Origin: Chiloscyllium plagiosum
Lineage: Eukaryota
DNA: 34,901 nt
Assembly: GCF_004010195.1 (NCBI RefSeq)
Contig: NW_025214105.1
Coordinates: 1 to 34,901 of the forward strand
Direction of reading: 5' to 3'
The notes under the pieces: generated by a model
The model's database searches: none
What the model saw: the letters and a program-made list of their open reading frames with translations, nothing else
What the model was told of the DNA's origin: nothing
Program-made: the position numbers and the translations under genes
Shown here: one piece after another, positions 1 to 23,036 of the stretch
How the letters are laid out: every line of letters starts with the position of its first letter
Position numbering within the stretch: position 1 is the first letter of the stretch

Positions 1-262
1 CTTGAGCAAATGTCTGTGTGGAGTTGGCATTTTCTCACTGTGTCGGCGAGTGTTTCCTCTAGGTGATCCGGCTTCCTTGACACCCAAAAGATATGTCGGT
101 TAGGTGGATTGACTCTGTGAAAATTAACCGTAGTGTCCATAGATGTGCAGGCTATGTGAGTTAGCCATAGTAAATGTAGGAATACCCGATGTGCGATACA
201 CTTTGCAGAGTTAGTGCAGACTGATGGTCTTGGCAGCGTCTATTTGTACGCTGTGCTTTTAT
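1..262 (+). mobile_element. HE1-like SINE, decayed; 5' head cut by the window edge
   Basis: gtctgtgtggagttggcattttctc...gtttcctctaggtgatccggcttcc...gttaggtggattg resembles the better-preserved copies at 14190-14452 (-) and 33202-33560 (+). Confidence 0.7.
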
Positions 263-822
263 GAATTAAAGGAACAACATTCTTGGAGTGCAGTTAAATA
301 TGTCGAGTAGCTTTCATGTGAAGTTAGGGTTCATAATGTCTCTGGGAAAATCTAGATCAATGTGTCAAATCATTTTCAATGAGATAATTGAAATGTTGAA
401 AGCATTTGGATTTGGTCAGTCAACAGCCCAAAATAGACCTGCACGTGAATAATACTGACATTTTGCCTTAACGTTTTGCCTTATTTCTGTGTTCCTACCA
501 ACCCCCAGATAATTCGGATGTGAGGCATCTTACTTCACGCTATTGGACCTCTTCAACAAGAAAAATGCATTGGGTTCCAATCAATTTCTTCCTAAACCTC
601 CCTTGTCAAAGGTATTTAGTATGTTTCGATATCTTAGCCTTGCTGATTATTTTTAAATCCCACAAGCTTTCTTTTAAAAATCAACTTGTAGTTTGTTAAG
701 GTTTTGCATTTCTTTGTGATAATGCATTAATTTTTCAATGTAAAACTTATTAACTTGATCAATTGCAGATTTGAAGATCCATAGTCACAAAATCACAGCC
801 CAGAATATTGTATAACACCTAA

Positions 823-1030
823 GTAGGCAAGTAGAATTTGAGATTGAATTGCTAACTTAACACAGTGGAATTAAATTATCCCTGGCACACTGTGATTGAT
901 TTAAACACAGACCTGGTTGTGCTTGAAACATCATCATTGCTGGCTGGGCATTGCTCCCTATTCTCAATACTTATCCAGTGCACGCATAAGTGCTCAATCC
1001 TTACAGCTGTCTCATTCAATCTGAAGGCTA
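823..1030 (+). repeat. Left arm of a ~200-bp imperfect inverted repeat (partner 2010-2214)
   Basis: Colinear with the reverse complement of 2010-2214. Contains an exact 23-nt match: tccctattctcaatacttatcca (955-977) versus 2062-2084. The ORF track shows the mirrored peptides (CSLFSILIQCT at 865+ and 2216-). Confidence 0.9.
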
Positions 1031-1157
1031 AATATATTCTCACATTAAAGTTAATGTAGCTTGAATGCATCTTTATCTGTTGTCCCTGTTTCAAAAACAA
1101 ACCAAATATGAATTGAAAGATATTGTAACCTGAATGTCCCTGTGGAGATCATCCAGG

Positions 1158-1164
1158 TATAAAT
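1158..1164 (+). promoter_or_regulatory. Candidate TATA box of the GPR139-like gene
   Basis: TATAAAT about 90 nt upstream of the ATG at 1252. Positional inference only. Confidence 0.4.
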
Positions 1165-1251
1165 TAAAGGCTGTAATTCTGTCTCCCTTCAAAGTTTTAA
1201 TTAGCGAGAGTGTCTGCAGCTGAATGTGGCATCTAAATAGCACAGTATAAT

Positions 1252-1315
1252 ATGGAATTATTTCTTAGTGTCAGGAAAATATACTGCATGATTCTTGCTC
1301 TCGTTGGTGTCCCTG
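1252..1315 (+). CDS. gpr139-like: Coding exon 1 of a GPR139-like GPCR (short N-terminus and first half of TM1: MELFLSVRKIYCMILALVGVP + G)
   Basis: Strong Kozak context (aatATGG), in-frame TAA at 1234-1236, and consensus donor G|GTAAGT at 1315/1316 in phase 1. The peptide ends G-V-P and completes TM1 G-V-P-V-N when joined to the phase-1 acceptor at 21890/21891. Confidence 0.8.
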
Positions 1316-1591
1316 GTAAGTCATAAAGACTTGAAAATTTAGAAAAGTTGGTTATGAACTGCTGTCTGCTTTGACTGTGTCACTGTCACAGTTACTCACT
1401 GACCTAGATAAAACATCAGGGAAATATATTGTATAATCAAATGTCCTGAATTAATATTGTTATTTTAATTCCATTACAGTACCTCAAACTAAATATTTTT
1501 GTAACTCAGAGGTTTCAAAATGTATCAGGTCACTGCAGTTACGAGAATATTGTGAATCAGTCATCAGCACATTGAGGGGGTGTCAGGCAAA

Positions 1592-1710
1592 GTGGACTTT
1601 CTGACGTGCAATGGTAATGTTCGTGCCTTTGAGTCAGGAGACCTAGGTTCAGGTTCCATCCATTTCAAATGTGGATAACAGCATCAATGAACAGACAGAT
1701 TAAGAACAAA
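1592..1710 (+). mobile_element. Short tRNA-derived SINE-like fragment, decayed
   Basis: A-box-like gtgcaatggtaatgt and B-box-like ctaggttcaggttcc with tRNA-like spacing. Confidence 0.45.
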
Positions 1711-2009
1711 TGTAATTACTGAGGGTAGTTGGTACTTAGTGCATAGCACTGTGGAATTGTTTCGAATGTGAATCATTATTTGGCTTGATACCTATAACCA
1801 CAGTGATTATGTACGAGTGGGAATATCAGCCAGGGTGGGACTGCGCTGAATCTGACTCACTAATTGAAGCAGAATTCATTGGCTGTTTGCTTTGTTAATA
1901 CTCAAGGAAACTGATTTATCCATTCACAGTATTATCATTGTCTGAACGTAATTCGTAGGACGGAGAATAATATATATTTTTCTCTGTTGGTTGAAGAAAT
2001 TTGTTAACA

Positions 2010-2214
2010 GATCCTAAATATGAATTGGACAACTGAAAGCACTGAGCTTTTTTGCGTGCATTGGATAAGTATTGAGAATAGGGAACAATATCCTGCCAAA
2101 AATGATGTTACTGTCTCATGTACTACCAAGTCTATCTTTATATCATCGCAGTGTGCCCGTGATAATTTAATTCCGCTGTGCTCATTGGATTTCAGTCTTT
2201 CTCTATTTCCCAAC
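2010..2214 (-). repeat. Right arm of the ~200-bp imperfect inverted repeat (partner 823-1030)
   Basis: The reverse complement reads agactgaaatccaatgagcacagcggaattaaattatcacgggcacactgcgatgat..., matching agattgaattgctaacttaacacagtggaattaaattatccctggcacactgtgattgat... at 841 onward. Confidence 0.9.
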
Positions 2215-2371
2215 AAAAACGCGCTAACAGAAACAAATTGTAACTAGTTACCGACAGCTGAAAAGGAGGCTATTTTTTTCTACCATTTTCCAACCCTTTG
2301 GATAATGGCTCAGGTTTACACAAAGCAGACAGTAAGGGTGAAGATGGTTAGTTTTAAAACTAATTAATCGC

Positions 2372-2640
2372 ATTGGCAAAGTGGTGATTTCTCTGGACTA
2401 GTGATTCAAAGGGTCAGGCAGCTTTCTTGGGATGCTGCTTGAATTCGGAAAACAATAGCTGGTGGTATCGAAATTAAAATTTCATCTTGTGAAAGGTGAT
2501 TATAAGACTATAATTGATTGTAGGAAAAGAAAATCTAATTAATTGCTTTCTTGGAATCAGGGAGATCTGCTGACTTTGTCTCGTCTTTACTACATGTAAT
2601 TTCCAAACCACCCTGACGTGTTTGGCTCTGAAGTAGTCAT
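2372..2640 (+). mobile_element. Decayed tRNA-headed SINE-like interspersed repeat
   Basis: gtggtgatttctctggactagtgattca...gctggtgg...ggagatctgc...ctacatgtaatttccaaacc. A related copy lies in reverse at ~19760-19990. Confidence 0.5.
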
Positions 2641-4394
2641 ATAGGTCGCTGTGACGGTAATGAGGAGCAAGTTCAAAAGAACTGATCTTGCAGCACGACC
2701 CCAGGAATCAACTCCACCAACATTGTTCTCGTAAACTGTAGCCTGGACTGTTGGGATAAGTTAGTACGACTGATCTTGTGCTTGTACATTGTTTCAAACG
2801 TTGGCATAGCCTTTAGAAGAGAGGAGTTAAACGTGTGTCATCAGGATAACTTACAGTTAATGAGAGGTTTTGATCTTTATGACCAAAACGGCTGTAAAAC
2901 TGCAGAAAATGTTGGCTTTAAACATCTATGTCTGACTTCACTACCCATGCGCAATTAAAAACCTCTTGTCAACTTGACGAAAATGGTCAGAACATTTAAG
3001 CTCAGTGTGGTAATGCAGACATTTAAATTGGGTATAGCTTTTCTGGTTGCCTCGATCGGTTAACTATATTCGTCCTTATTTATGGGTAATGCAGATTATT
3101 CTCTTGGCGTCCTATTCAAAACTTTTTATTCCCATCTGCCTCAGCATCTATGTAAATAGCTTGAAACGTTTCATGTCGATGTACACAGTTCTTTATACTG
3201 TTAAACTGGTCTCTTCAACTGCAGACTGTCTCTGTTAAATGATGTTTTCCGAAGGTGAAATAAACGTCGGAACTCCAATGAAATAAAAGATAGGCTTTTG
3301 CCTGAGCAAACGAGGTATAGATGGGGATGGCAACAGATGACTCTAACCTGTTGCCAATAAACGGGGCTCTTCCAGGTTATTTGTCAATACAGAACAAGTC
3401 AACATCAGTGATGTATTTTGAAAGCTCAGAGACGTTGTTCCTACTAGTTGCCATGGCTCTCCACGTCGTAATTTATTTTTGCTTCACAGTTCCACGTCAG
3501 AGTCAGAAGAGGGAAGGCATAGCCTGTGCTGGCAGTATTCAAAGCATTTTAGAATTTTGAGGCACAAGAAACATTCACATTGTTTTCAGTCTTTTCAGTT
3601 AAGTATAGCTAAAGTATTTGCTGACAGAAATACTTCTTAATCTTATATTCATCAGGGCATTGCGCAAGAATCAAACTGAAGAAATTCTACTTGACTCATA
3701 ATCCCTAACTGAGCATATCTTGCAGGTTATGCACAATTGAGGATCCCAGTGTTATGCATTGAGAAATCATCACAAGTACATTCGAAGTAAATGGTTTTAT
3801 ACATTAAGTACCCTGAAAACCTACAATAACTACTTTTCATTTCATGATCTTTCAATTCAAATGAATGAATGTTACACTGCGGTTATTGAATTGCACATTA
3901 TGGGATTGAGTAATGTTTGACTGACTGATAATTATCACTGATTTGGATGTAACCTGTCCAGATTTCTGTTCTGCTCTCGGTGGTGCACCTCACTTCAAAA
4001 GGAACATGAGTTTCAAGAAATGGAGGTCAGTCGAGAACTTTAAATTATCATTTTATTAAATTGTGCATAATGAAATAGATCGTTTCGTTAGGAGACAAAG
4101 CGCTTGAATATGTGAAGTATTTAGCAACTGGTGATCAAGGCAATTTAATATTGCAGTTATTCAGAATGATGTTGAATTTTAAGCATTGGAATTAACCTTT
4201 AAGGCAATTTCTGACACTATACTCTTTCATGTGAACACCTCCCCATCTCTATTCTTGCAACCTAGTCATCATGACATTCTACTTGTTTATAAATCATGTC
4301 CTTAGCTATGTTGACCTTAAGTACATTTTTGTTTCTTTCGAAGCAATTCATAGCAAGTATATGTTTCTGGTAAGATCACCATCTATTGCACTTT

Positions 4395-4600
4395 CAAAAT
4401 AGTCCTTGAGAATGTGGTGGTCAGCTGCCAGGTGTGAACGGTTGCAAGGTGGATTGCCTTAAGAAAGAAATTGTCAGGATTTTATCCCAGAGACAGTGAA
4501 GGACAAAGAGACAGGCTCCGATATCCAAAGTGGTGTTGACTTTTTCAATGGTGTCAGACGAGCAGACAGCCAGGAAACTGGAAAGTATTTCATGAGTTGC
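4395..4600 (-). mobile_element. Decayed LINE (CR1/L2 clade) 3' fragment
   Basis: ccttgagaatgtggtggtcagctgcc...ggattttatcccagagacagtgaagga resembles the copy at ~29505-29850. Confidence 0.4.
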
Positions 4601-5064
4601 GGAGTATAGACGTGTTTCGGGGAGTAAGGAAGTGAGTTAAATGCCACAGAATTCCTAACTCCTAGGCTTTAGCTATTGCGTTGATATATTTTAAGATTAA
4701 CGTTGTTCAGTTGACGCAAGTTGTGGAAAGTTCCACCTTCTCCACCTAATGCAGTCACAGATTTATTGTGTTGATCTCACATTTATTAATTTTAGAGAGA
4801 CATTTTAGAGAGACGTTAAATACATTTTCTGTGCTAACACTATCAAAAGCACTCACGATTTTACAAACTTCTTTAGGTTCTCCTTGCCTTCTTGGAGGCG
4901 AAACAAAAGCCGTAAACTGTCTGGTCAATATCAATCAGTTCAAAATTCGTCCTTGTCGTGCATTTGAAACGTAAAATACTGCTCATGTGGAGGAAAGACT
5001 ACACTTGAATACTGTTAAGGAGCAAATAGGCTAAGCTACAGACCTCAGCCCGTATTTGACCGGT

Positions 5065-8000
5065 GAGTCAGCACGATCAGAGCATTCAGTGAGTGATGTT
5101 CGTGAGAATCATTAAGGGATGCCACGCTGTCAGAGCATCAGGACTGATGGGGTGCTGCACTTCAGAGATCAGTGTAGAGAGATGTTTGTTCGTACTCAGT
5201 ACTGAGGGAGAGCCGTTGACTCAGACGGTAAACATCAAGCGAGTGCTGCACTGTCAGATAGTCAGTGCTGAGACAGTACTGCAAAGCCAGAGAGTAAGTA
5301 CTGAGGGGGCGCTGCTATAGCGGGCCTAAAAATGTGCTGCGTATTCAGATTTGTTTAGGACTGAAAGTGTCTCACTGCAAGTGTCATCACTGAAGCAGTG
5401 CTGCACTGTCAGAGGGCCACTACTGAGGAACTGCTTCACTGTCATAGAGTCGGTACTGCAGCAATGCTGCACTGACAGACGGTCAGTTCTGAGGGACAGT
5501 TGTTTTTTTTTCAGAACGTACTTAATAAGGAAGACCCAGAGGATCAATACTCAGGGCGTACTGCACAGTCAGACGCTTAGTACTAAAAGAGTGACAGAAA
5601 GTCACACTGTCAGAGTGTCAATTCAAAAGTTCCACACTGTAAGGGTTTGAAGAGAATGTCAGCTGCACTCTCAGAGTTTCAGCACTGAGGGACTGCTGCA
5701 CTGTCGGTGACAATGCTGAGGGAGTGTTGCACTGCCAGAAGTTCAGTAGAAAGTATATGTATGCTTCACGGCTAAATATTCAGCACTGATGCTGTGCGGC
5801 GTTCTCAGAATGGAAGTACTGAAGGAAACTGGGCTGTCAGAGGTCAGTACAGAGGGATTGGTACACGGTGAGATGATACATAGTAATAGAGTAACAGAGA
5901 ATCCCATTCTCAGAGGATCAGTAATAAAGCTGTGCTGCATTGTCAGAGGGATAGCTGAAATGTTGTGATGCACAGCGAGAGGATCAATACCGGGGCACAG
6001 TTGCAGTGCCGAGGATCAGCACTGAAGGAGTGCTACACGGTCAGATGCTGAGTAAAAGGAGTGTGGGTGATGGTCTAACAGACAAAGGTTCAATTCTAAA
6101 GAAGGGCAGTACGGTCGCAGGGTCTTCAGAGAGGTTGTGCTGTTCTGTCAGTGCTTCAGAAGGTATGCTGCAGTGACTGAGGAAATTACAGAGGTAGTGC
6201 TACACTGTCGGGGGGTCGGTTCTTGGAATTTGCTGCACTGCCAGAGTGCCACCACGGAAGGGCATCTAGAGCGATAGTACCGGGCAAGTGATGAATTATC
6301 GTAATTTCAGAACTCAGTGATTCAGAAACTTTCTCATAATCACGGTACTGAGGGAAGTGATGAACTATAAGAGGGTTCGGAGAGACTGTGAGTTGCACTG
6401 AGAGGATAGTAATCAGGATTCGCCACTCTATCTGATTGTCAGTACAATGGGAGTGCTGCAACGCCAGAATGCTCATACGAAGGAAGCACGGCACTGGCAG
6501 AGAGTCAGCGCTGAGTGTTGCACTGCTGGGGGAATGCATTAAAGCAGTGTTACCCTGTCAAGCGATCAGTACTGAGGGACTGCCGCTCTGTCGGAGAGAC
6601 AGGAGAGAGGGAATGCACTGTTGGTAAGTCAGCATTGAGGCAGTACAGCATTTTCAGTGTCCGGACAGAGGGAATTCTGCCCTGCCAAAACGACAGTTCA
6701 GCGTGAGAGCACTGTCATTACTCAGGGAGGATCATTATTGAGGTAGTGCCAATCTGTCAAGAGGTCATTACGGAAGATATCCTGCAATGTCGGAGGTTTA
6801 GTAATGAGGCAGTCTTTTCTGTGAAAGAGTCAGTAGTGAGCGAGAGCTGCATTTTCTGAGTTTCGTTACTACGGGAGAGTGCCTCATGTTAAAAAGGCAG
6901 TAACAAGGGAATGCTCTATCAGAGGGTTAGGAGAGAATGTGCGTAGCTGCCGCGTGCATGTTATAAGAGTACTGACTGTATCTGAATATCAGTGCTTGGA
7001 GATTGCTGAAGTGCCAGAATGCCGTTACTAAGGAAACGTTGCACTGTCAGAGAGTCTGTATGAGTGCTGCACTGAGGGAAAGTACTAAAGTAGCGTCACT
7101 CTGTCGGAGGAACAGTACTGAGGGAGTTCCAGTCTCTGCAAGAGTCAGGAGAGAGCGAGTGATACACTTTTGGTGAGTCCACACTGAGGCAATGCTGCAT
7201 TTCCAAGTGTCAGGACGGAGGGGATACTGCCTTGCCAGAAAGACAGTATAATGCAAGATACTGTCTTTACTCTGGGGTGTTGTATTTTCAGAAAGTCATT
7301 GCTGAGGGAGTACCACTCTGTCAGGGGTCAGTAGTGAGGGAGATCTGCACTGTCAGAGGGTCAGTGCAGAGGGAGGGCTGCATTGCCAGACAGTGAGTAT
7401 TGAGTGACTACTGCACAATCAGAGTCAATGTTGATAGAGTGCCGCACAATCAAAGGGTCAGTATTGTTTCACAATTAGAGAGCCAGCACTGAGGCTTTTC
7501 GACACTCTCATAACGTAAGTACTGAAGGAACGCTGTGCTGTCAGAGGATCAGGGCTGAAAGACTGTTACGCGTTCAGATCATACTCACCAACAGAGTGAC
7601 AGAGTATCTGACTCTCAGAAGATTAGTACCGAGGCTGTGCCTCACTTTCAGAGGGTCAGCTGAAACACTGTGCTGCACAGCCAGAGGCTCAGGACCGAGA
7701 GAAAGCTGCACTGCAGAGGATCAATACTGAAGGAGTGCTGCACCGTCAGATGCTTATTACGAAGACAGTCAGTGACAGTCTGCCTACCAGCTGGTCAGTT
7801 CTAAGGTTGTGTCGCACTGTCAGAGGGTCTTCAGAGAGGCTCTGCTGTTCTGTTCGTAAGTCATAACTACTGGTTAATTTAATGCACTAACAGCGGGAAA
7901 GTTTGGAGGGAGTGCTGCACTTCTGGAGGGACGATGCATTATCAGAGTTTCAGTCGAGATAGCGCTTGAACGTCAGCGGATCAGTAATGAGAGAGTGCCA

Positions 8001-11000
8001 CACTGTCAGAGGGTCAGAAGAGAGTTTGTCCTGCACTGTTGGTGAGTTAGCAAAGGCACTCAGAGATCCGCAGCTGTCAGAATTTGCACTGGGAATGGTT
8101 CCATATTGACAGTGCTGCACTGTCAGAAGGTCAGTAGATTTTCAGGAGCGCAGTTCTGCGATGTCAGTGTATGTCATAACTTTGCACTACTCCATCTTAG
8201 ACTCAGTACTGCGACGCAGTTGCAATGCCAGAGAGCCGGTAATGAGAGAGTGCTTCACTGTCACAGAGGCAGTGCTGAACTGTCGGAGAGTCAGCACTGA
8301 GGAAAAGATGCACTGCCAGAGGAAAAATACAAAGTTAGCGCTGCTCTGTCAGAGGGTAGGGAGTAATGGAAATCGCATTTTCAGAGGTTCAGTAGGAATT
8401 GTCTTTTGCATTTTTACAGAATCAGGACTGAGGCAATGCTTCACTATCAGAGATTCATAACTGAGAGTGTTGCACGATCAAAAGATCAGTGATGTGGAAA
8501 GTTTGCACTGTCAGAGAGACAGAGAGTGGTTGTGTTGCACTGTCGGTGGTTGGGGTGTGGGGTGGGGGGGGTCAGTACCGTGGGTGCCGCACTCTCCTGA
8601 GTGTAAATACTGAAGGAGTTCTGCACTGACAGGTCAATACTGGTGGAGTCCAGCACTGTCAGTTGGTCAGTTCTGAAGAAGCGCTGCACTTGTCCGAGGA
8701 CAATAGTTGAGACTGCCCCTCTGGGTCGGAGATTCACTATTACGGGAGTGCTGCTTGGTCAGATTTTTTTCGGGCTGAGAGGACAGAGCGTATTGTCAGA
8801 ATGTATTTAATAAAGGAGCGCCACTTTATCAGAAGATAAGTCCAGAAAGAGTGCTGCGGGTCAGATGTTTAATACTGGGAGAGACAGATTGTCTCACTTT
8901 GACAGGATTAGAAGAAAGTTAGCAAGATTTGTAGCACTGTCAGAGTTTCCATACTGAAGGAATACTGCAGTCAGATGGTCACTTCCTAGGGAGCGCCGCA
9001 TTGTCAGACGGTCAGTACTGAGTGAGTGCTGCACTGTCAGAGGGTCAGTACTGAGGGAATTCCGCACTGTCAGACAGACAGTACTGAGGGAGTGCTGTAC
9101 TGTCAGAGGGTCCGTACTGAGGGAATGCTGCACTGTCGAAGGATCAGTACGAGGGAGTGCTGTACTGTCTTAGGGTCATTACTGAGGGAATGCTGCAATG
9201 TCAGAAGTGCAGTACTGAGGGACTGCTACACAGTCAGATGATTCGCACTAAGAGAGAGACATAGGATCCCAATCTGAGAGGGTCAGTACTATGGTTGTGC
9301 CACACTGTCAGGGGGATAGCTGAAACGATGTGCTGCACAGGCTGAGGCTCAGTACCTAGCGAAGGCTAGGTACCACAGAGTATCACTACGGAAGGAATGC
9401 TACACGGGCAGATATATATCACGAAGACATTGAGTTACAGTGTAACTGCCAGCAACCTCTCCTATTTTGATTTACAGCAGTTCTTTCAATGTTTACGAAG
9501 GAAGTACTATACTGTCAGAGGATCAGAGACTGTGATTTGCTGCGTTTGCAATAGAGGTGAGCCACTCGTCTCATTCTCGGTACTGTTGCAATCGCCCAGA
9601 GATCCAGTACTAAGGGAATACTGTCAGTGGGTCAATGCTGACTGCTGCACTCTCAGCGGCTTCAAAACTGAGGGAGGGACGCACTGTCAGAAGGTCAGTC
9701 GAGTCTCTGCTGAACTGTTAGAGAGTCAGATTGGAGGGAGAACTGCACTGTCAGTACTGAAGTAATGCTGCACGGTCAACTGGTTAATACTGAAAGTGTG
9801 AAAGCGTCTCACTGTCAGAGGGGAACGTGAGAGGGTCTGTCGCATTGTCAAAGTTCAGCAATGAGCCTCTGCTGCACTGTCAGAGTGTATGTAATAAGGT
9901 TGCGCTATCTGAGGCTCAGTGCTAGGATGGTACTGAAAGCTAATACTGACGGAACTGCTGCATGTCAGACAGTTAATACAGAGAGAGTGCTGCAATATCA
10001 GAGGGCAAATAGTACGTGATCGCTGCTCTATCAGAAGTATTAGTCCTGATGAAGTTCTCCATTTGAGAGGATGAGGAGAGAGTACTGCACTATCGTGAGT
10101 CACACTGTGACAGCGGCACTAACAGATTGTTAGCATTGACGCAAAGCTCCACGCAAAGTATATTGCCTATGCTGCACAGTTAACGAATCAGCATGGAGGC
10201 AGTGTTTGACTGTTTGAGATTCTTAACTGAGGGAGTCCTGCAATGTCCGAGGGTCAATCCCGAGGCAGTTCGAGCACTGTCAGAGAGTCAGTAGAGGATG
10301 TATACTGCACGGGTAAAGAATTTCCAGTGAAGAAGCGCAGCACTGTCAGTGTATTAGTACTGAGGTAGTGCTGCATTGTCACAGTGTGTGGAACGAGAGA
10401 AAGCCACTTCATCTGATTCTCAGTACTACGGAATGTTGCAATGCCAGAAAGCCAGTATTGAGGGAACGCTGCACTATCACATAGTCAGTATTGAGGGAAT
10501 ACTGCACTGTCAGAGGGTCAGTCTGAGGGAGTGTTGCATTGTCAGCCTTCCTGGGAACTAATACTAAAGAAACACTGTCAGAGTGTCAGTGCAGAGAGAA
10601 TGCTGCACGTTCAGAACGACAATTTTGAGTGAGTGCTGCACTTTCAGTAATGATAGAGAGCAGAGAGAAAGTATTCAAAGGTTTCTGGCATCGCAGCACT
10701 CCCGTAGCATTGTTTCTGATGGAGTGGTACTCCCTTATTATATACACTTTGACAATTCAGCACTCCCTCAGTAATGATGCAACTGACAGTGTTGCAATTC
10801 TTCACTACACATTCTCTACTGACTTTCTGACAGTGCAGGGATTTCTTCAGTACTGACCCTCGCTCAGTGCAGCACTCCCTTGGTTAAGAATCTCTGATAG
10901 TGCAGCCCTGCCTCCGTGCTCATGTGGTAACAGTACAGAACTGACCCTTTCGGTGTGGGGCTCCCTTAAAATTAATCCTTCTGATCAATCGTCGATCACT

Positions 11001-11250
11001 TAATAGCTTGTCTGATGCTGTACCATTCCTTCTGTACTGACTGAAGTCCAGAGTTCCTTCAGTACTGGCTTTCTGACATTGCAGCACTGCCCCAGTACTG
11101 ACTGCGGGTGTTTCATTGTCAGAGGGTTAGTACTGAGGGAGTGTTGCACTGTGAGAGGGTCTGCACAGTGAGAATTCTGCATTGTCAGAGCTCCATTATT
11201 GAGCGATCGTTGCACCATCGGAGGGTCGGTACTGAAGAATTGCTATGCTG
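5065..11250 (+). repeat. Degenerate tandem satellite/minisatellite with a 33-bp unit, consensus GTCAGTACTGAGGGAGTGCTGCACTGTCAGAGG
   Basis: Near-perfect head-to-tail units at ~9011-9240 and recognisable decayed units throughout. The 11-codon periodicity shows in spurious ORFs (QHSLSTDPLTV repeats). The block ~10685-11096 is in the opposite orientation. Confidence 0.93.
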
Positions 11251-11350
11251 TTGGAGCTACCTTCTTTTGCTTGAAACATTAAAAAAACAAAATTGACCAC
11301 TCTCTGATCAGGTCAATGTTAGTATTCTTATGACAGTATTTCAAGGAAAG
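11225..11350 (+). mobile_element. DeuSINE (SacSINE1/AmnSINE1-like) core remnant continuing directly from the last satellite unit
   Basis: ctgttggagctaccttcttttgcttgaaacattaaa...tcaggtcaatgttagtattcttatgacagtatttcaaggaa resembles the remembered DeuSINE text ctgtcggaggtgccgtctttcggatgagacgttaaa...tcaggtggacgtaaaagatcccatggcactatttcgaagaa. Confidence 0.55.
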
Positions 11351-14189
11351 TAATGTAACATTTGTGCATTGGCTCTTATTTGGTTTTCAGCGGCATCCAG
11401 CAACATTTGTCTGCCCTTATGACATTTCCTCAAATGATGCTCTTGGTCACTGAAGAACTCTGTATGTCTACAGATTTATGTAGGAAATCACAGAACAGAA
11501 TGTATCCTCATTCCATATGGAATGAAGGTGTGAAGGACTGCTTTAGGGAAGAATGCTGAAAATGATAACAAAATATTGATAATGCACAAGCAAGAACGAA
11601 GTAGGATAATAACAGGGAATAATGCTTAATATACCAGTTGAGATCACCATCATCACAGGTAGGCAACTACTCGGTTATTAATGTTCCTCCACAGAGACAG
11701 AGAGAAGAATCAAACCCACCTTTTACCTCTGTATTCATAACGAATCAAAGTGAAAACTTTAAAAAGAGCCTCATAATTGGCCCCAATCGTTCCAAAATAC
11801 ACTTCATCAATAACCGATCTCAGACTACAAGTAATCTGTTCTCGATACTCGTTAGAGGTTTCAACAAAAGACCTAGTTTTTTTTTTCATTGTACAATAAC
11901 TTTAGTAGAGCAAAGTTAAACAACACAGTAATCTAATTGGTGCATGCTTTAAACACAAAACCTTTGTTTTCAGCCTTTTTTACACAAATTAGAGACATAC
12001 AAAAAACAGTTAAATAAAATAAAATAGCAAAACTGTTAAAATTACTGAAATGTTTTTCCACATGTGTTATTCCACAGACATAAAAGATGGCTTTTTGGTT
12101 GTTTTTCTGAAGATATCTATCAAGATCATCATTTACGTTCTTTTAGATAAAAGCAATAACACTTATGATTTAGTTTTGCATTTTCTCAGCATCCAGGAAC
12201 TGGCAAAGGAGGTTAGGTAGAGGCTTTCACTTTAACATTGCAATATCGCTGCCAGATTGATTTTTAAAAGAAATGTAGTCGAATAATGCAATTCAAACTC
12301 TGACCACCCCCTGCCAGACTGAGCGTCTGTCGCAAGCGTTCTCACATACCACTTAATATTTTCCATTTGCTTGAAAATAGTGTTTCTGCTCGACTGGCTG
12401 GAGAAAATTCCCATGTGCCTTCCTCTTTAAACGCCGATTTATTTTATTTATTTAAACACAATGCTGAAGCGACTGCAGAACCTTCTGATCAGTGAACCAT
12501 CTAAAATTTATCCAGGCCTGGGTTCGCGAATAAATAAAGGTTTGTTTGAACTGTTTTCTTTTTTTTAAATGCAAGTTGTTACCCATAGACCAAACAGCAT
12601 CTTTAGCTTACAATTCTAACTTCACAGTTCTGAACCAACATTGATTTGTAAAGCAAAAACAAAACAATGGCAACCACGGTGGGGTTGTGGGGGTGAGGCA
12701 TGAGAAAGACGTGGTTGGTGGCGAGGTTTACATGAGGCTGAACATGACGGAAGCCTGGGGCGAGTTTGGGAAGGCAGGAATATATAACATGGCCACCTCT
12801 AATGTTTGAAGATTTTAAATGTGAATTTAAATATCTATTTCAATACTTAAATGTAAAAATGAGTTCAATGGGTGTACTTTAATTGCAATTATGGGCAGGT
12901 GGCTTCAGATTCAAAATATTTAGAAGGGAAAGGAAAATTATTTCGGTTAGAAGACAGATCAATGCTAACCTTCTCTTTTTTACAATTACAGTGTCAGCCT
13001 TTTTGTATTGACGACAGTTGTTGATAATTTTCCTCAGTTTCTGATCAGACTGAGAAGTCGATGACATAAATTTTCTTCAGCATTCTCATAATTTTACAAA
13101 ATGTTTTGAGCAAACCAATGAACACACCACAGTAGGAAGCCTATTGTCAATTAACCCTGTTCAGAGAGTTGAACATACTCAACCACCCAGTAATTGTAGA
13201 CATCCACAAAATTTTCTCAGGGTACAGAGTTAGCAAACACTTTGCACTTTCCATTAAAGAGTGAAAATAAAATACTTATTTTCTTCCGCTGGAAATATCA
13301 CAGGATCTGTGTATTCAATGCCAACAGCAGATTCCATTTAAAAAGAAATAGCACAGGTTTTTCAGCAGTAAAACCCATTGAAACAGAGTTGAAATACAAT
13401 ATTTAATGACTAGGGCGGTTTCTTTTGACGGTATAGAAAGTTTTCCAACTATCAATAGACACACTCATAGCTATTCAAGCACAATTGTTTTCTTCACAAT
13501 TTCAAAAAGATAACATTTTTGTTCTCATTTATGCCTTAAAATCTACCTCTCTGAGTATCTCTATTTTCCAATTTTCCATCTTTAAATTAACTTTATTTCA
13601 AAGCACCGGTATTTGGTGCTTTTCACTTCCTGGTTGCTGCTGATGATATTACCTCAATGTAACTAGTTGCCATTCCACTTGATAACAGCACACACTGAAC
13701 TTGGTAAAACGTTATGCTAACTTGAAGGTGGGAGACGGGAAATTCATGCCACAGTAGATCACCGCACCCTTCTGAGCTGCGTTTTGCAAATTCATTCTTT
13801 GTTGGATCGACATCATGACATAACATTCCTTTAAACCGAGGATGACAAGATGGGTTTTGGAGACTTCTTTAGGAGGAAGGTTTGGAGTAGAATCCTAGGA
13901 CGGCTCTTAATCGTGCTACTTGACAAGACTCAAGCTGACTCAAGCTGAGCGTGTTCTCGCTCTTTCAGATGTCAAAGGGTGGACCTTTGCCCCAAATCTG
14001 CCTTTAACTGAAACATTTTCTTTTCTGAGGAAAGGACAACATTGCACAGTAATTTTTCAACACTACCCTCAGTGATCTAGCTATTCACTGTTTACGTGAG
14101 TTTGTCGAAAAAAAATGAAAGTCTTCATGACCATTTACACAGAAAGTAATCGCTAATTAAAATACTAATCAATTACAAACTATCAGCTA

Positions 14190-14452
14190 AGATTAGATTA
14201 CATTACAGCGTGGAAACAGGCCCTTTGGCCCAATAAATCCACACCAACCCATACCCCTAACCTAACACTACAGGCAATTTAGCATGGCCAATTCACCTTA
14301 CCTGCACATCTTTGAACTGTGGGAGGAAACCGGAGCAAATCCACGCAAAGAACGTGCAAATTCCACACAGTTAGTCGCCTGAGGCCGGAATTGAACCCGG
14401 GTCTCCGGCGCTGTGAGGCAGCAGTGCGAACCACTGTGCCACTGTGCCGCCC
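14190..14452 (-). mobile_element. HE1-family SINE, relatively young, internally shortened
   Basis: The reverse strand begins GGGCGGCACAGTGGCACAGTGG (A box)...GGTTCAATTCC (B box), followed by the HE1 body and a short (TAATC)n tail at 14190-14200. Confidence 0.9.
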
Positions 14453-14596
14453 AACGGGTCTAACTGGTCTAAGAGACTGACGAGAAATTCCTAATTTAAA
14501 ACGACTCCTTCTGGGAAAGGTATTGAAGTTTAAAACTGCAGTTGGATCCATAAGTGGCCAGATGACTTTTAACTTCAACATGTCTGAAGCTCGGCT

Positions 14597-14643
14597 CCTA
14601 ATACATGTTCATTGTCTTTTGTTTTCCATTTGGGCCTCCTCAG
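14597..14643 (+). promoter_or_regulatory. Probable 3' splice acceptor of the muscarinic coding exon
   Basis: Branch-like cctaat (14597-14602), pyrimidine tract ttcattgtcttttgttttccattt...cctcct and CAG ending at 14643, 26 nt upstream of ATG 14670. Muscarinic genes typically have the coding region in one exon with an acceptor just upstream. Confidence 0.55.
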
Positions 14644-14669
14644 TGCTAACTGTACATCAGGGTGAACTG

Positions 14670-16070
14670 ATGGAAAAACCAACAGAACCGAATGGATCTC
14701 TCAGTACCTCGGAAGAGTTTCTTGACACTCAAAGACGGAGTTCTTACAAAATGGGCGAAGTAATCTTCATTGCGATTGTAACGGGATCTCTGAGTGTGGT
14801 AACCCTCGTGGGGAACGTTCTCGTTATTATTTCCATCAAAATAAACAGGCATTTGCAAACTATTAACAACTACTTCATTTTCAGCTTAGCCTGCGCTGAT
14901 GTCACTGTTGGAGTAACCATGAATCTATTCACCATTTACAGTCTCCTTGGCTACTGGCCTCTGGGCCCGGTGGTGTGCGATTTATGGCTTGCTGTCGATT
15001 ACGTTGTCAGCAATGCCTCTTCCATGAATCTTCTTATCATCAGCTTTGACCGCTACTTCTGTGTGACCAAACCCCTTAGCTACCCCGTAAGGAGGACACC
15101 AAAGGTTGCAGGCATGATGATCGCAGCCGTTTGGGTGGTGTCATTTATTGTATGGGCTCCTGCCATTCTGTTCTGGCAGTTCATCGTAGGGCAGAGAACA
15201 GTCAGTGACGGAGAATGTTATATACAGTTCTTCTCCAATCCTGCCGTCACTTTCGGCACTTCAGTAGCTGCCTTCTATCTGCCAGTCACCATCATGGTGA
15301 TTTTATATGTATATATATCACGGGCTAGCAAAAGTCGAATGAACGTGGATAAAAACGAGTCTGGATCTAATAAGGAACCAATTTCCCCCAACCTAGAGGT
15401 GGGTAAGATACTGAAATCGAATCCGAGCAACATATCTAATGCTTCTGTTAGGCTGCCAGAAGTGAAAATGCCAAAAGGTACAATAATCCATGGAAGAATA
15501 ATTGATCATTTCGATGAAAGAGAGGAGGTGTGCTTGGGTGAGTCAACTTCTTCCATTATGATTCCACCAAATAAGAAGTTGGTAGGGTCTATCAGTGATA
15601 ATGGAGATGTCTGTACTGTGATGGATAACTGCAAAGTTTCCTATACAAGGATGATTAATCAACGACAAAACAGTTATGACCATGGAACCACACCTGGAAT
15701 CGTTGCAGATCTTCGAAGCAATAACGGGAAGGATTGGAAGATCACAGAAACTCAAAAAACAAGTAAAATAATTCATAATACTGCTCAGAAGAGAAAGGTC
15801 AGTGTTACGAGAGAAATGAAAGTGACTAGAACCATTCTGGCTATTCTTCTGGCATTTATCATCACTTGGAGTCCATACAATGTCATGGTGCTCATTAGCA
15901 CGTTCTGTCCCAGCTGTATTCCAAACACAGTTTGGAATATCGGATATTGGGTATTTTACATCAATAGCACTGTCAATCCAGCCTGTTACGCACTCTGTAA
16001 TGCTACTTTCAAGAAAACCTTCAAACATCTTCTTTTGTGCCAGTTCAAGAGCAGTGGTGCAAAAAGTTAA
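14670..16070 (+). CDS. chrm2: Muscarinic acetylcholine receptor M2-like (divergent paralogue), single coding exon, 466 aa
   Basis: Unmistakable motifs: [99 protein letters not shown] (M2-type). The ORF-track start at 14523 is a non-ATG codon. Met50 of that ORF (14670) gives a normal-length N-terminus with an NGS sequon. Confidence 0.93.
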
Positions 16071-16133
16071 AGAAAATAAGCCACAAGCAAAATATCATGA
16101 GCACTCCATGTAATGTGATGATGATGACTTTCA

Positions 16134-16139
16134 AATAAA
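16134..16139 (+). terminator. Candidate polyadenylation signal of the chrm2-like gene
   Basis: AATAAA 64 nt after the stop codon, followed by a GT-rich tract (~16157-16176). Confidence 0.45.
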
Positions 16140-16296
16140 TATCTAAAACTACGGGCATGTGATGTGTTTATTGTGTCAGAAAAGACTCAGGTAGACATAT
16201 TACACGCCATTTTTGAAGCACACTTTAGTTTTACCCAATTAATTCGTAATGTCTCTTATCAATGATGGTTTGCTGACGAGACTGGGAGATGTTGTG

Positions 16297-16927
16297 GGAG
16301 CATTTCAGAACTGATAGCCAGACTACTGCGACCACTAGGACTTATAACAGCACACAAACCAACAGCCACCCTCAGACAACCACTCACCAGAACGAAGGAC
16401 CCGATACCCAGCATGAGCAAAACTAATGTAGTGTACAAAATCCCATGCAAGGACTGCACAAAACACTATATAGGACAAACAGGAAGACAGCTAACGATCC
16501 GCATCCATGAACATCAACTAGCCACGAAACGCCACGACCAGCTATCCTTAGTAGCCACACACGCAGACGACAAGCAACATGAATTCGACTGGGACAACAC
16601 TACCATTATAGGGCAAGCCAAACAAAGAACAGCCAGGGAATTCCTAGAAGCATGGCACTCATCCACAAACTCCATCAACAAACACATCGACCTTGACCCA
16701 ACATACCGGCCACTACAGCGGACAGCTGAAACTGACAACCGGAAGCGGCAGGGACAGGCCACTATAAATGCCGGAGGAAACAACACAGAAGGGCTTCACA
16801 GGAGGCTCCCAAGCACTGAGGATGTTACCTAGACAGGGGACGAAACGTTTGCAACAAAAATTTCCAGCTCGGCGAACAGAACTACAACAACGAGCACCCG
16901 AGCTACAAATCTTCACCCAAACTTTGA
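16297..16927 (+). mobile_element. 5'-truncated Penelope-like retroelement: GIY-YIG endonuclease region plus 3' pLTR
   Basis: Uninterrupted frame with NVVYKIPCKDCTKHYIGQTGR...RIHEH...H...HEFDW...REFLEAWH...SIN (GIY-YIG), stop at 16830-16832. Candidate target-site duplication ACTGGGAG(A/G)TG at 16281-16291 and 16928-16938. Confidence 0.9.
16813..16852 (+). ncRNA. Minimal type-I hammerhead ribozyme motif in the Penelope pLTR
   Basis: GCA-CTGAGGA-t-GTTACCT agac AGGGGAC-GAAA-CGTT-TGC: CUGANGA and GAAA core boxes, a stem II with one mismatch, short palindromic helix III (AACGTT), and GCA/TGC stem I. Confidence 0.75.
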
Positions 16928-19759
16928 ACTGGGAGGTGAATTGTCCAATGTCAAATTTGCACAAAAAATTCGAATGGCTGGTGAGATTTGTTCATTATTA
17001 ATGAAAAATTAAATGATCTTTGTGGTGAAGGAAAGCAGAAGTTCAATATTTTCAACATTATCCAAGAAAAAATAGTTGAAAAAAACTGAATTCTCGTATA
17101 AATTCAGTATGTTCGGGTGGACAGCACTTAGCATTGTTGGACAAGTAATGTTTATATGGGGTTATGGACAAATGCACTCGATTAGAACCACTTTTTATTT
17201 GGCTGAGGAAGACTCGAAGTCGGTGCCAATGCTTTCCAAATTATTAAAAATAAATAAATGCGTCACCACTAAATAAATAATAGTGTAAACTAATTTAACC
17301 ATATTTATTTAAATAACACAATGCCTATCGTGTTTCCAGAGCACCTGACCTCTTTTACCGGGTCTTATCATGTCCATTTAATTTATTAGATACTAGCTTA
17401 TTCATTGTTGTGAAAATAAAGAAAACGATTCCTGCTTTTAAGCCACAGATGTTTCAGCTCAAGATCTAGCAATTCACTGTCATGTACCCAGGCTGATATC
17501 TAAGCAACAAACTTATGCATTTCATGTGTTTAAGATCTGTGTCACCATTGAACCAACATTAATAAGAACATAGTCTTGACTACAGTGGACACTGGATAAT
17601 TGGAGCTCACTGCCTTTGCGGATTTGAATCAGGTGGGATTTGACTACTTCGGTCTTTTCCACCTACATCTGCATGGTTGGAGAGCTTGTCATCCTCACTC
17701 TCCATCCCCACTTATTTTCTGTGCCACTCGGCTCAGTGCCATCCCTCAGATTTGCAGCAGGAGCACCAGGTCAGAGGCTAATCTTTTAGTCTTTCCCAAG
17801 TATCCTTTCCATTCCAGCGGGTTTCTGCAAACTGAAAAGACCAAATTGAAACAGTGCGAATTGAGTACAATATACAATGCACTGAGTAGATTTTAATCTC
17901 AAATCGGCTTTCTTAGTTACAATGGATTCATTGCAAAAGTTTACTCTGTTCAGGTGCCCGACCTTCTGGGAAGGATTGGAACCATGTCGCAGGAAATGAC
18001 CTTGGCCTTCCAGCATGTCAAATGGTTGAAATTTCCGCAGCTACAATGTGCTGAATTTCCAAGTGAAAGTGTTAACTTCTCAACTGAGCCGAAATTTCCT
18101 AATATTGGTGCACATATTTCAAGCTAACCTGACATGCTCTCTCGTCGACTCAACACCTGGTTCACTGGAGAAGTGAAATTCAGTATCAGAAAACATCAAT
18201 GTGCCAAATTATGTTGCAGACTCGTTATTATATTCCTCATTAACCCATTGGGTTGACAATAACAATTGCATCTGTCTTGGGCGTTTAGTGGAGTTCTAAA
18301 TCACTAAGCAGAAACAATTACTAAACATTGCTCAGCAACATTGGACGATAGGAAAAATGACATTGCTACCATATAGGGTGAAGAGGGTCATGAAAGGGAT
18401 TTTGCAGTTGTAGGCACTTTTCGTTGGATTCTGTTGGGGCGGGGAGATGAAGGCAAACTGTGCAAAAGAGTACAATCTAGGTCGCAAATACAAGAATTTT
18501 TATTCCAACCGTTAACAACACCAGCGGCAAAAGATGGAAATGGCAAAAATATCAGGGCATTCATATCTGTCTCACCAAGAAGAATCATGTGCGATTGCAA
18601 ATGGGTTCCACAGCCACGTTGGAACAGACCATAGCTAACTCTTCATGCACAGGAAACAGCCAAAGTAGGAAAACCAACAAAGGGAGGCGGTGGGCGGAGG
18701 AACTTTCAGCGTAAACACTCAGGGTAAATAATTTTCAAGGTAAACACAGTAAAATGCTGGTGAAAAGTATAGAAAAGGTAATATCAGTCTTAACTAATAT
18801 TCCATATTATGTAAAATAAGATGAGGTTCGACCAGTACCATCATTTCATATGTTAATGAGATTCATTTTTTCCATCCCTGGTTTTCTCCCTTGTTTTTAC
18901 CAGGTAAATTAAATAGATCTTCTGCTGTTTTTCCCACTAATCCAGATCCAATAATACCAATGGACCCATCTGTCTTGTTTATCCCAGCAATGTCCCATGC
19001 AATCTGATTCCCTGTTTCCCATTGCCTCTTCTATTATTTCCAACAGTCTTCCTGCTATACAAACAAACGAGATACAATCTCTGGCCTTTCATGTCCTTCC
19101 TTCACACCAGCCATGGTCCCAAAGAAATCAATGCAGTTTAAGTACTGACTTCTTTTTATTTCTTCCATGTGAGCAACTATATTCCCTGCTCAAATTGTTG
19201 TCTCCTCTCCACTGAAGACATCAAATGCAGATTGAAACATTATTTTGGGCCCTTCTATTCAGTCCTCAGTCTTTATCCTTAGCTTCCTATTGCTTTGACG
19301 TTTTACTTCTCGGACTACGCTCTCTACCCTCAGTCTCAGATATTATTATATATTTCAGCTCAAAGGAAACATGCCATTTTATATTTTGTTGATTTTATAA
19401 CTTTAAAACTCGCAAAACTCTGTTCACAAACTTCAGGTCATAATTACTGCTTTCATTCTCGTGGGCGGTATATTCATTTATTGAAGGATGGTTATGCACA
19501 GCCACAGAGATAGAGGGAATGTTTTTTTTTCTGTTCTTGCGGTGGGGATTGCTTGATGAGTTACCTGCCTGTGAGATCGTCCAGACTCCTGGAGTCCGCT
19601 TTTATGATGAATCTGGGGAAAGCTGGGTGTGATTTCTGAAATGGTGTCAGTTGTAAATATCATATTTGACTGGCTGACTGGTTTGCTAATGCAGAAAAAT
19701 GCTAATAATGTAGTTTCAATTCCTGGAGATTATAATGAGGACTGTTAAGATTCAAGCAC

Positions 19760-19990
19760 GTTAGTGTGGGTCCGGAGTCACACGTAGACCAATCTACGTA
19801 AGGACAGTATTTTCTTTTCCTAAAGACACAAATAAACAATATGGTTTTTTTCAACAACTGACAACAGTTTCATGGTAACCATTAGATTGTTAATTCCATT
19901 TTCTTTTGTAATTGAATTCAAATTAGCCATCTGTGATGAGAGAATGCAAACATAAGTCCTCAGAGCATTACTTGGAATATATGGATCGAC
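19760..19990 (-). mobile_element. Decayed SINE-like repeat, same family as 2372-2640
   Basis: gtgtgggtccggagtcacacgtagacc...gtaaggacag...cagtttcatggtaaccattag...gaattcaaatt. Confidence 0.55.
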
Positions 19991-21890
19991 AGTATTTTTT
20001 GAAGTTGTATTAATGTTTTGAATTGACTTTTTTTTATTTTTAAATTTAGACCTTCACACTGCATTATTACTGGAAGCGTTTTAGTCCTTTCCTCCATTCA
20101 GATAGAGAGAAATTATTGAATTTGTTACTTGATTATTTGCTTACACCCCATTTTAAATTCTCCTGTAATGCAAACACATTGCCTTTTTTTGCTAATCTTT
20201 ACCATTATAAATAATTATAGTGGATTTTAGAGTCTTTTCTTTTGCTAGTTTTCCCATTTGTACTATGTTATTATTTGAGAATGACAGTGTCCATATTCTC
20301 CTCGGGCAAACTTTGTTTGGTAACTTGAGTTGACAGGTTTTTGATCTGATACAATCCTTATTAGGAGACTTCCCTTATTGAGTGTTTGTGCATGGTGGAA
20401 ATGTATTTTGATTGTTAGTTGTGTATTAGTTCCTTAAATGTTAACTATTGCTGGTCTACCATCAGACATTCCATTGCATTTTCCTCATCCACCATCACCA
20501 AATCTTCCCTCTGATCTTCATATTTTATTTTGTTTAGAATTAAGGCCGTGGTTTCTGATTGTAAACTAAATATAACATCATTCATGTCATGGCCACTCTT
20601 TCGTAAACTATACTTTGCAACAAAGTTTTCAGTTGCCCATCCTTTTTTGCATAATGCACAATCTAAAACAATCTACTGCCTGGATGGTTCCCCAATGTGC
20701 AGCTTAGAAATATATTTCACATGCATATGAAAATTTGTCCCACACAAACTATGCTAGTATTAATGAGGGTCACGTGGTTCATATGTCAATTGAAGTTTTC
20801 CACATTTATTGTGTCAACTCCAGTTTCCAAAATGCCATTTACTTCCTCACTCCTGTATTCTACTCTTTAGTGAACACAGCTACACCACCACCATTTTCCA
20901 GCATACTGCCATTTCTGAATACCACTAATTCACTAATTACTATCGGATCATGCTTATGAATTTATATTTAACTTAACAATTGATGAAAATGATTGCAAGT
21001 GTAAGGCACAAATTTCTTAATTCAGTTTTCTTTACCCACTCTATAACCTTTTGCCCTATCTGTTGACATACTTTTCTGATTTTGTTCATTGTATTTCCTG
21101 CTATACTCTGATTATTATTTTACATTTGCCTTGATCTATTATTGTTTCCTCTCGCTTAAACTTATGGAACCATCTAGATGTGCTCCTTTATTCCCCTATT
21201 CAATTACAGGCTTTGTATCTCCCAATTCAGATGACTTGCCTGAAGACTGACTCCAGCACTGCTTAATTGAAACCCATCTCAACAATGCAGCCACATTTTT
21301 CCAGTACTAGTGTGAAATTATCACAAACTACCAATCAGTATTCTCACAGCAACCCTTAAGTCATACATCAATAACTCTAAACTTATTGATCAAATGCTAA
21401 GTTTTACGTAGTTCAATTTTTGCACAAAGGATTGCCTCATTGAAACTTCTTTTTAGTTCTGTGGCAGATCCTCATACTTGCAATGCAAAACCTCTTTATT
21501 AGACTACCCATGTCATTGGTACCTGCAAGGAGAAATACAACTGGATCTTCTCCCTTCAACTGCAATCTCTTATCCAGCAGTAGAACTGCATATGAAAGTA
21601 ATAGATGTGTTGCTGCCTGCATGAGCAGTTGTGCTGATTGAAGACTTAGAATGATCACCAGTTGTATCGACGAAAATGAAAAAATAAGATTTTGTCAGTA
21701 TCACTCATGTACTGAAGAAGATTGATAGTTTTCCTTGGGGAAATTAAATCCAAAGAAATTAGGTTTATCTTGATTCTAGTTTTGTGACGAGATTGTAAAA
21801 TTTTTACCACCAATCAAACCATAAAAAACAAACAAGAAATATTTAATGAGAAATTGCCAAGCATTTCTTTTTTTCTTCTCTCTCTTACAG

Positions 21891-22846
21891 TCAATTTATT
21901 GGTAATTGTCATCCTATCATGGAAGAAGTGTGGCCTCTCCACTTGCACAACTTACTACCTGATGGCTGTGGCAACAGCAGATCTACTGGTCATCTTCTCT
22001 TCTATCATATTGGATCAACTCATTTCCTATTTTTTCCCAGTATCTTTTCTGGAGATCACTCATGTGTGTAATATCATACTTATTCTTATTTACGTAGGTA
22101 CTGAATGTTCTGTCTGGTTTGTTGTCACTTTCTCACTTGATCGATTTGTAGCCATTTGTTGTCAGAAGTTTAAAACAAAGTATTGCACTGGCAAAACTGC
22201 ACTTGTGATTCTATCAATCACATTCATTGTGATTTGTTTAAAAAACATCCCATTTTACTTCATAGTTGAACCCAGAGAGATGATTGATGATGTTCCTTGG
22301 TTTTGTAAGGAAAAGACAAACTACTATACAGATCCTGCATGGGTGGCATTTGATTGGTTTGATACGATTTTCACACTATTGATCCCATACACTTTAATTC
22401 TCTTTGTCAATGTGCTCACAATCAGACACATTTTAATGATCAGATGGGTCCGGCGGCAACTCAGGGGTGCTGTTGGAAACTGCACTGACCAAGAGATTGA
22501 GAGCAGACGGAATTCTGCAATTTTATTCTTCACAATATCAGGCAATTTCATTTTACTTTGGCTTTTATTTGTTATAAACTTCTTATGTTGTACCATTGCA
22601 GGATATATTCCTGAAAATTACAATGCTTCCTTAAACATCTTTGCAGATGTAGGCATCATGCTGGTGGATTTAAGTCGCTGCACACATGCATTTATTTATG
22701 GTGCCACTCAGTCCAAGTTCAGGGAGCAGTTCAAGAGTGCTGTGAAAAATTCATATACATCAATGTCTAATTTTCTTAACTACTGCTGGGAGCCCCATGT
22801 TTCCAGTAACATTCATCCTCATTTAACTAGAGGTTTCCATAGGTAG
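21891..22846 (+). CDS. gpr139-like: Coding exon 2 of a GPR139-like orphan class A GPCR (end of TM1 to C-terminus); spliced product 339 aa
   Basis: Strong acceptor (tttctttttttcttctctctcttacag|, phase 1). Motifs NLLVIVILS.KKCGLS, ATADLLV (D2.50), CSVWFVVTFSLDRFVAICCQK, FILLW and FIYGATQSKFREQF. No stops or frameshifts. Confidence 0.88.
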
Positions 22847-23030: not shown

Positions 23031-23036
23031 AATAAA
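23031..23036 (+). terminator. Candidate polyadenylation signal of the GPR139-like gene
   Basis: AATAAA about 185 nt after the stop codon, in an AT-rich region. Confidence 0.35.

Follow-up and report, generated by a model that had tools for sequence, protein, structure and literature searches.

The window analysed here, a contig of 34,901 nucleotides (nt) from the shark Chiloscyllium plagiosum (NW_025214105.1, forward strand), holds a short coding exon of a GPR139-like receptor gene (exon 1) followed by two candidate last exons for receptors of different families, one derived from the muscarinic receptor gene CHRM2 (chrm2-like, or chrm) and the other GPR139-like. The original prediction was that exon 1 serves both of these G protein-coupled receptors (GPCRs), supplying half of the first transmembrane helix (TM1) to one and a signal peptide to the other. 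We find that the arrangement is real at the level of the family, where it exceeds chance, and that the chrm copy at the window locus has probably captured the promoter and first exon of the GPR139-like gene as a splice trap. The features concerned are as follows.

1158..1163, + strand: TATA-like box (TATAAA), putative promoter of the GPR139-like gene
1224..1250, + strand: upstream open reading frame (uORF) of 8 codons, directly 5' of the exon-1 ATG
1252..1315, + strand: coding part of GPR139-like exon 1; 64 nt (21 codons plus 1 nt), first half of TM1
1316..1321, + strand: phase-1 splice donor GTAAGT, abutting exon 1
14580..14582, + strand: intronic in-frame ATG, a rival start, at which the public model for the window locus begins
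14632..14633, + strand: site of the parent gene's acceptor AG (-36), GG in the window (alignment with the parent, L005)
14642..14643, + strand: acceptor AG (-26), in frame with the phase-1 donor
14644..14669, + strand: linker of 26 nt, coding in the fusion and 5' untranslated region in the parent
14670..16070, + strand: CHRM2-derived receptor open reading frame (ORF), 466 amino acids (aa); Pfam 7tm_1 E 1.3e-62, and tree
16134..16139, + strand: putative poly(A) signal AATAAA of the proximal (chrm2-like) last exon, from sequence
21891..22846, + strand: GPR139-like exon 2, the distal last exon; acceptor AG at 21889-21890
23031..23036, + strand: putative poly(A) signal AATAAA of the distal (GPR139-like) last exon, from sequence

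The window locus

The join of 1315 to 14644 is open for 496 codons and runs through the chrm2-like ORF at 14670-16070, and the join of 1315 to 21891 is open for 339 codons and gives a GPR139-like receptor. The in-frame, stop-free fusion to the chrm exon and the poly(A) signals at 16134 and 23031 had both been predicted, and both are found. Exon 1 (1252-1315) is thus a candidate leader of the chrm2-like product. Since the context of its ATG (A at -3, G at +4) is strong and that of ATG 14670 (C at -3) is weak, the extended protein would be the main product. In an alignment with a paralogous cassette, identity peaks at 0.90 over exon 1 against a median of 0.73, and the putative TATA-like box is matched in position, together with a motif upstream of it; an upstream ATG precedes exon 1 at a matching offset in two paralogous cassettes. 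A second exon-1 homologue was looked for across the whole window and none was found, and a Pfam search of four further window ORFs gave no match.

Among the 14 AGs between 14400 and 14680, the one at 14642-14643 has the best pyrimidine tract (15/19). The weaker acceptor at 14659-14660 would give a uORF of 22 codons whose stop ends 4 nt before ATG 14670, exactly as foreseen in the original prediction.

The CHRM2-derived cluster

In the genome searched (G000, 3.56 Gb, where the window is contig C100700 and chrm loci carry L-numbers), on C37 (14.9-16.8 Mb) the window chrm protein matches a cluster that comprises about 25 copies and fragments, and on C19 it matches one conserved gene. Public proteins that cluster with the C19 gene mostly bear the name M2a, and the names of those closest to the window protein refer to bamboo and epaulette sharks. 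The DNA tree derives all 18 of its cluster and window copies from the C19 gene, with modest support for the common branch (88/93; 96/92 in the protein tree), and the seven-transmembrane (7TM) chrm copies group with CHRM2, not CHRM4. The copies of carpet, mackerel and ground sharks fall together (Shimodaira-Hasegawa approximate likelihood-ratio test, 99), apart from the ray copies; since this was a quick tree without a root or clade test, a single origin of the shark copies is only tentatively proposed. Rays own a separate set of M2-like copies outside the shark group (P0170, P0177-P0179, P0187 and others).

The ratio of nonsynonymous to synonymous substitution rates (dN/dS) over the 7TM region is 0.09-0.34 in all 12 chrm pairs, and 0.10-0.24 in the three pairs that bear on the window ORF, while the third intracellular loop evolves near-neutrally in some pairs. 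Asp 3.32 and the DRY motif are retained in all ten aligned intact copies. The window copy keeps 15 of the 17 positions tested (Asp 3.32, DRY and the orthosteric pocket), with the changes A5.43S and C7.42F, and pocket positions 6.52, 5.42, 7.39 and 7.42 vary among the other copies. The sequences suggest amine receptors with altered selectivity. Intact orthologues were found in several sharks, and about half of the cluster matches are stop-bearing or fragmentary. A near-identical pair of chrm pseudogenes lies at C37:15098064 and 15104130, inverted and 5 kb apart. In the CHRM2 isoforms P0297 (shark) and P0208 (gecko) the N-terminus is extended in frame by a short stretch whose first residues are similar in the two, which hints that a longer isoform of the parent gene is ancient.

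GPR139 is the best match of the window exon 2 among solved structures, but the similarity is weak (E 4.8e-9) and the shark-expanded family has thousands of exon matches. The acceptor phase is identical in all 30 GPR139-like loci shown, with a phase-1 intron within TM1; GPR139 itself presumably also has two coding exons split inside TM1, as judged by the human intron position. The family is very large (7,832 first-look candidates), and our literature search found no paper on a GPR139-like expansion in sharks. Against its closest paralog the window GPR exon has a dN/dS of 0.58, and the join of exon 1 to GPR exon 2 reads through without a stop at two further loci, L002 (334 aa) and L009 (319 aa).

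Recurrence of the cassette

An exon-1 profile was run over about 725 kb of DNA, comprising the window, the surroundings of the C37 copies and the 20 kb that precede the parent; the upstream DNA of L004, L018, L019, L024, L026, L028/29 and the copies at C37:15714062 and 16798855 was left out. It found 24 homologues, 17 of them in its training set, and the best score in a reversed-sequence control was 8.2 bits. The paralogous loci, proposed from the outset as a place to look for the same arrangement, do have it: a same-strand exon-1 homologue lies 4.5-25 kb 5' of the chrm copy in 18 of the 19 copies examined, six of these homologues being outside the training set, and the sole copy without one is a 3' fragment at 15965148. 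Six of the 24 precede only their own GPR exon 2, and none was found 5' of the parent within 20 kb. Two older-clade exon-1 regions, when searched as DNA, gave few long matches.

Five well-supported groups are common to the chrm and exon-1 trees ({L016,L017}, {L006,L007,L027}, {L009,L011}, {L010,L013} and {window,L002,L003}), and therefore exon 1 and chrm have duplicated together. In the older exon-1 clade (support 100/100), a chrm copy follows 12 of the 13 exon-1s, with the place of GPR exon 2 between the two. The exon-1s of the window, L002 and L003 belong to another clade; in these three cassettes chrm stands between exon 1 and GPR exon 2, and the three align collinearly at about 72-77% identity. 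Since both the exon-1 clades and the exon orders differ, the sequences point to two separate captures. Homology to the parent stops about 0.2-0.6 kb 5' of the chrm ATG, so that the copies are DNA duplicates that took the acceptor with them but apparently not the parental promoter (20 kb examined).

Signs that the exon-1 join may be used

The parent has AGs at both -36 and -26, and its public models P0297 and P0288 splice at -36. The -36 AG is out of frame with the phase-1 donor and the -26 AG is in frame. The -36 AG has been lost in four supported clades (the window group and three others) through at least three different base changes, the -26 AG is kept by 11 of the 12 copies without it, and one or other of the two is retained in all ten intact copies. 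We propose that loss of the -36 AG moved splicing to the -26 AG and so brought exon 1 into frame.

The intact copies L002 and L009 have lost their own ATG, so that the first Met stands at residue 83-84, past TM1, and each carries an intact in-frame exon 1. The loss is common to the orthologous proteins P0005, P0176 and P0282. In the basking shark M2-like model P0168 the ancestral Met was lost by a small deletion and a long upstream exon has been assigned; this is possibly another ATG-less cassette.

In the older clade, GPR exon 2 is absent (six) or decayed (five) in 11 of 12 cassettes, with 2,986 N in one of the intervals; it is not decayed at the window, L002 and L009. The GT donor of exon 1 persists in all six GPR-less or GPR-decayed older cassettes with an intact chrm copy and is lost before two chrm pseudogenes. 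Over all copies the donor is present in 9/9 intact and 5/7 broken ones, the two classes differing only a little.

Four public models from three other sharks (XP_060706660.1, XP_048375722.2, XP_072406588.1 and XP_048376193.2), all of the older clade, join such an exon 1 to chrm. XP_048375722.2 begins exactly at the exon-1 Met, and in XP_048376193.2 exon 1 is frame-shifted and thereby fits the -36 AG. We left out P0174, a chimeric model of exon 1, part of the GPR exon and chrm, and P0223, whose leader is short. The exon-1 peptide profile matched 1/162 and 2/119 proteins, P0233, P0223 and P0282 being recognised by eye, and a search with the junction region of P0012 matched only P0012 itself.

Reads of four of 16 sequencing runs (X1, X2, X5 and X6) were mapped on 1000-20999, a stretch that ends before the GPR exon-2 acceptor. 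They were uninformative on the junction: X1 and X2 are DNA, X5 reads fell on repeats with a depth of 0 at exon 1 and at the unique chrm bin, and X6 gave 0 reads. Run X1 is 2-5 times as deep over the chrm exon as at exon 1, and two small contigs of G000 (C67815 and C29968) are 94-96% identical to the window chrm exon and exon-1 region; additional near-identical copies may therefore exist.

Exon capture in at least some cassettes is very likely, and we somewhat favour the view that both products are made from exon 1 at the window.

The predicted hydrophobic leader

The join would add a leader of 30 residues, for which basic residues and a hydrophobic core had been predicted. Both are present: the charge is +1 before the core and -2 after it, and the best mean Kyte-Doolittle hydropathy is 2.75 over 11 residues and 1.85 over 19, the complete TM1 of the GPR product reaching 2.85. 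The positive-inside rule governs the orientation of membrane segments, and together with these charges it favours N-in/C-out, which would leave the predicted glycosylated N-terminus of the receptor outside with or without cleavage; the N-glycosylation sequon is retained. The leader is most likely a membrane-targeting sequence of one kind or the other. A cleaved signal peptide, taken singly, is less likely than not, and an uncleaved anchor, with which the 19-residue mean of 1.85 is also compatible, seems somewhat less likely again; the remaining weight goes to a leader that has no part in targeting. A structure prediction of P0172 (mean predicted local distance difference test score 46) was uninformative about the leader.

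Across the family, exon 1 is in frame in five of nine intact copies (window, L002, L006, L009 and L012), and the other four (L010, L013, L014 and L016) would use it only as a uORF. The leader is thus not essential family-wide, and the gain common to the copies would be a promoter, not a leader.

Other features of the window

A degenerate G-rich 33-bp tandem repeat occupies much of the intron (5000-11300) and is present in the introns of both paralogous cassettes. A SINE-like (short interspersed nuclear element) sequence of very high copy number lies at about 14190-14445, some 200 nt 5' of the chrm acceptor; the paralogous cassettes are without it, and RNA reads end loosely in poly(T) there. 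Just 3' of the chrm poly(A) signal is a high-copy element (16266-16900) with an ORF that has no Pfam match and that, by its motif, resembles the GIY-YIG endonuclease of Penelope-like elements. Two intron patches (1890-1959 and 13094-13163) are conserved above background in three cassettes.

Weighing the explanations

Several observations weigh against the shared first exon and its leader. The caveat made at the outset, that the frame may fit by chance, holds, since three further AGs upstream (14484, 14541 and 14589) are likewise in frame and open. The parent's stretch corresponding to the linker is also stop-free, so that the open linker is inherited and the frame fit at the window is, taken alone, no more than chance. 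Matches to the exon-1 donor motif are dense (1,970 genome-wide on many contigs, against 14 in a control), and congruent trees show co-duplication, not splicing. The fit of L012 depends solely on a second AG, exon 1 can be no more than a uORF in the four copies named above, leader hydrophobicity varies (19-residue means of 1.26-2.35), and a window-type leader was found in 0/8 public proteins of the window clade examined. The evidence from ATG loss is suggestive and not decisive because the neutral probabilities of remaining stop-free after the loss are modest, at 0.05-0.08 for L009 (three pairs) and 0.23 for L002 (one pair); the lone strong value (0.002) comes from P0012, where a further Met precedes TM1, and L011 shares the ATG loss yet carries a stop. 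The four joining models are predicted gene models and may not be independent. The shared first exon gains strong comparative support from the recurring cassette, the ATG losses, the donors that outlast the GPR exon and the public-model joins, and the splicing itself is a prediction from sequence and gene models.

These points bear differently on the other explanations. The chrm copy could be a passenger nested in the 13-kb intron, with a non-coding exon and promoter of its own or unspliced from ATG 14580, in which case exon 1 would serve only the GPR139-like gene and its frame would fit by chance. It speaks for such a passenger that P0161, the public model of the window locus, and its Hemiscyllium orthologue P0002 both start at ATG 14580, from which the leader would be hydrophobic too (11-residue mean 2.06); the 496-aa length that these proteins share with the fusion is a coincidence, as both start at the intronic ATG. 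The window chrm copy moreover retains its own ATG, the SINE-like element stands immediately upstream of its exon, and the two small conserved intron patches may count on this side too. However, the frame of ATG 14580 meets a stop in L002 and the ATG is absent from the parent, L002 and L009 would be without a usable start unless an upstream coding exon provides one, and orphan exon-1 donors survive where the GPR exon has gone. We therefore consider a nested passenger improbable. Capture of the promoter with an incidental leader, exon 1 being a 5' leader exon whose peptide has no signal function and the downstream ATG being reached by leaky scanning or re-initiation, is impossible for the ATG-less L002 and L009. 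It also sits poorly with the strong and weak ATG contexts at the window and with the public model that restores the frame through a frameshift, and we hold it to be less probable still, even though the exon-1 frames stop 4-66 nt before the chrm ATG in four of nine intact copies and exon 1 has a stop (L013) or a frameshift (L010) beside an intact chrm ORF. As to the chrm copies being mostly unexpressed duplicates that ride along with a rapidly duplicating GPR139-like array, the many broken or fragmentary matches and the near-neutral third loop would agree with this, but the low 7TM dN/dS in every pair, the universal Asp 3.32 and DRY of the aligned intact copies and the intact orthologues in several sharks make it very improbable.

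We thus prefer capture of the GPR139-like promoter and first exon, and propose the following course of events. In a shark ancestor the CHRM2 coding exon would have been copied at the DNA level with its splice acceptor, apparently without its promoter, and have landed beside a GPR139-like gene, where it became an alternative last exon trapped by the promoter and coding exon 1 of that gene. The cassette would then have duplicated many times, with GPR exon 2 decaying in most copies. The window lineage would represent the second capture, in which a chrm copy came to lie within an intron of another GPR139-like gene, the two ORFs staying intact. Here splicing of exon 1 to 14644 would give the chrm2-like receptor with its hydrophobic leader, and splicing to 21891 the GPR139-like receptor. 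On this view the window holds a single cassette of a shark CHRM2 expansion that seems to depend on GPR139-like first exons taken over by the copies.

Comparison with known systems and significance

Alternative last exons, nested genes and class A GPCRs with exon-encoded signal peptides are all known phenomena. The window resembles the first in having one donor, two acceptors and a poly(A) signal after each, and the last in that a hydrophobic leader would come from a separate exon. Unlike usual alternative last exons, each here encodes nearly a whole receptor of a different family, and the leader is half of the first helix of the other receptor.

The closest parallel is that of the rodent vomeronasal formyl peptide receptors (FPRs), where Fpr-rs3/4/6/7 are under a V1R promoter and Fpr-rs1 is under a V2R promoter (PMC7873101). 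Both systems have a single-exon GPCR downstream of the promoter and first exon of another GPCR family, acting as a splice trap in rodents and probably in the shark, and in both the cassette multiplies and two captures are indicated. The host coding sequence pseudogenises in the rodent case and is decayed or absent in 11 of 12 older shark cassettes. In contrast to the rodent case, the first exon in the shark is coding (half of TM1), is in frame in several copies and would take the place of the start codon in two; at the window, L002 and L009 the host receptor has stayed intact.

The copies descend clearly from CHRM2 and retain D3.32, DRY and most of the pocket aromatics. They differ from vertebrate CHRM2 as described in PMC6298421 in their number (about 25 local shark copies), their varied pocket residues and their foreign first exon. 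That paper reports no CHRM duplicate outside whole-genome duplications among the species analysed, and the word shark occurs in it only in one reference title. The shark chrm copies are already visible in public annotation as 'M2-like'. Our literature search, which covered few subscription papers, found no description of a shark CHRM2 cluster or of such an exon arrangement.

A shark lineage with about 25 local copies of CHRM2, which keep the amine-binding Asp, vary in the pocket and apparently run on promoters borrowed from another gene, stands in contrast to the reported absence of duplicates outside whole-genome duplications (PMC6298421). If the capture is true, it would be the second vertebrate case of one GPCR family hijacking the first exon of another, possibly one in which a leader arose from a coding half-helix and two receptors draw on a single exon. 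It would also correct the N-termini of many public models, offer a way to find out where the GPR139-like family, as yet unexplained, is expressed and make simple predictions for reverse transcription PCR and expression. More speculatively, and with real doubt, sharks may possess a private amine-sensing family built from CHRM2 by repeated trapping of GPR139-like promoters and first exons, in which the half-helix came to serve as a signal sequence along three or more routes (a shifted acceptor, a replaced start codon and a compensating frameshift) and one promoter would choose between a muscarinic-type and a GPR139-like receptor by its last exon, possibly in sensory cells.

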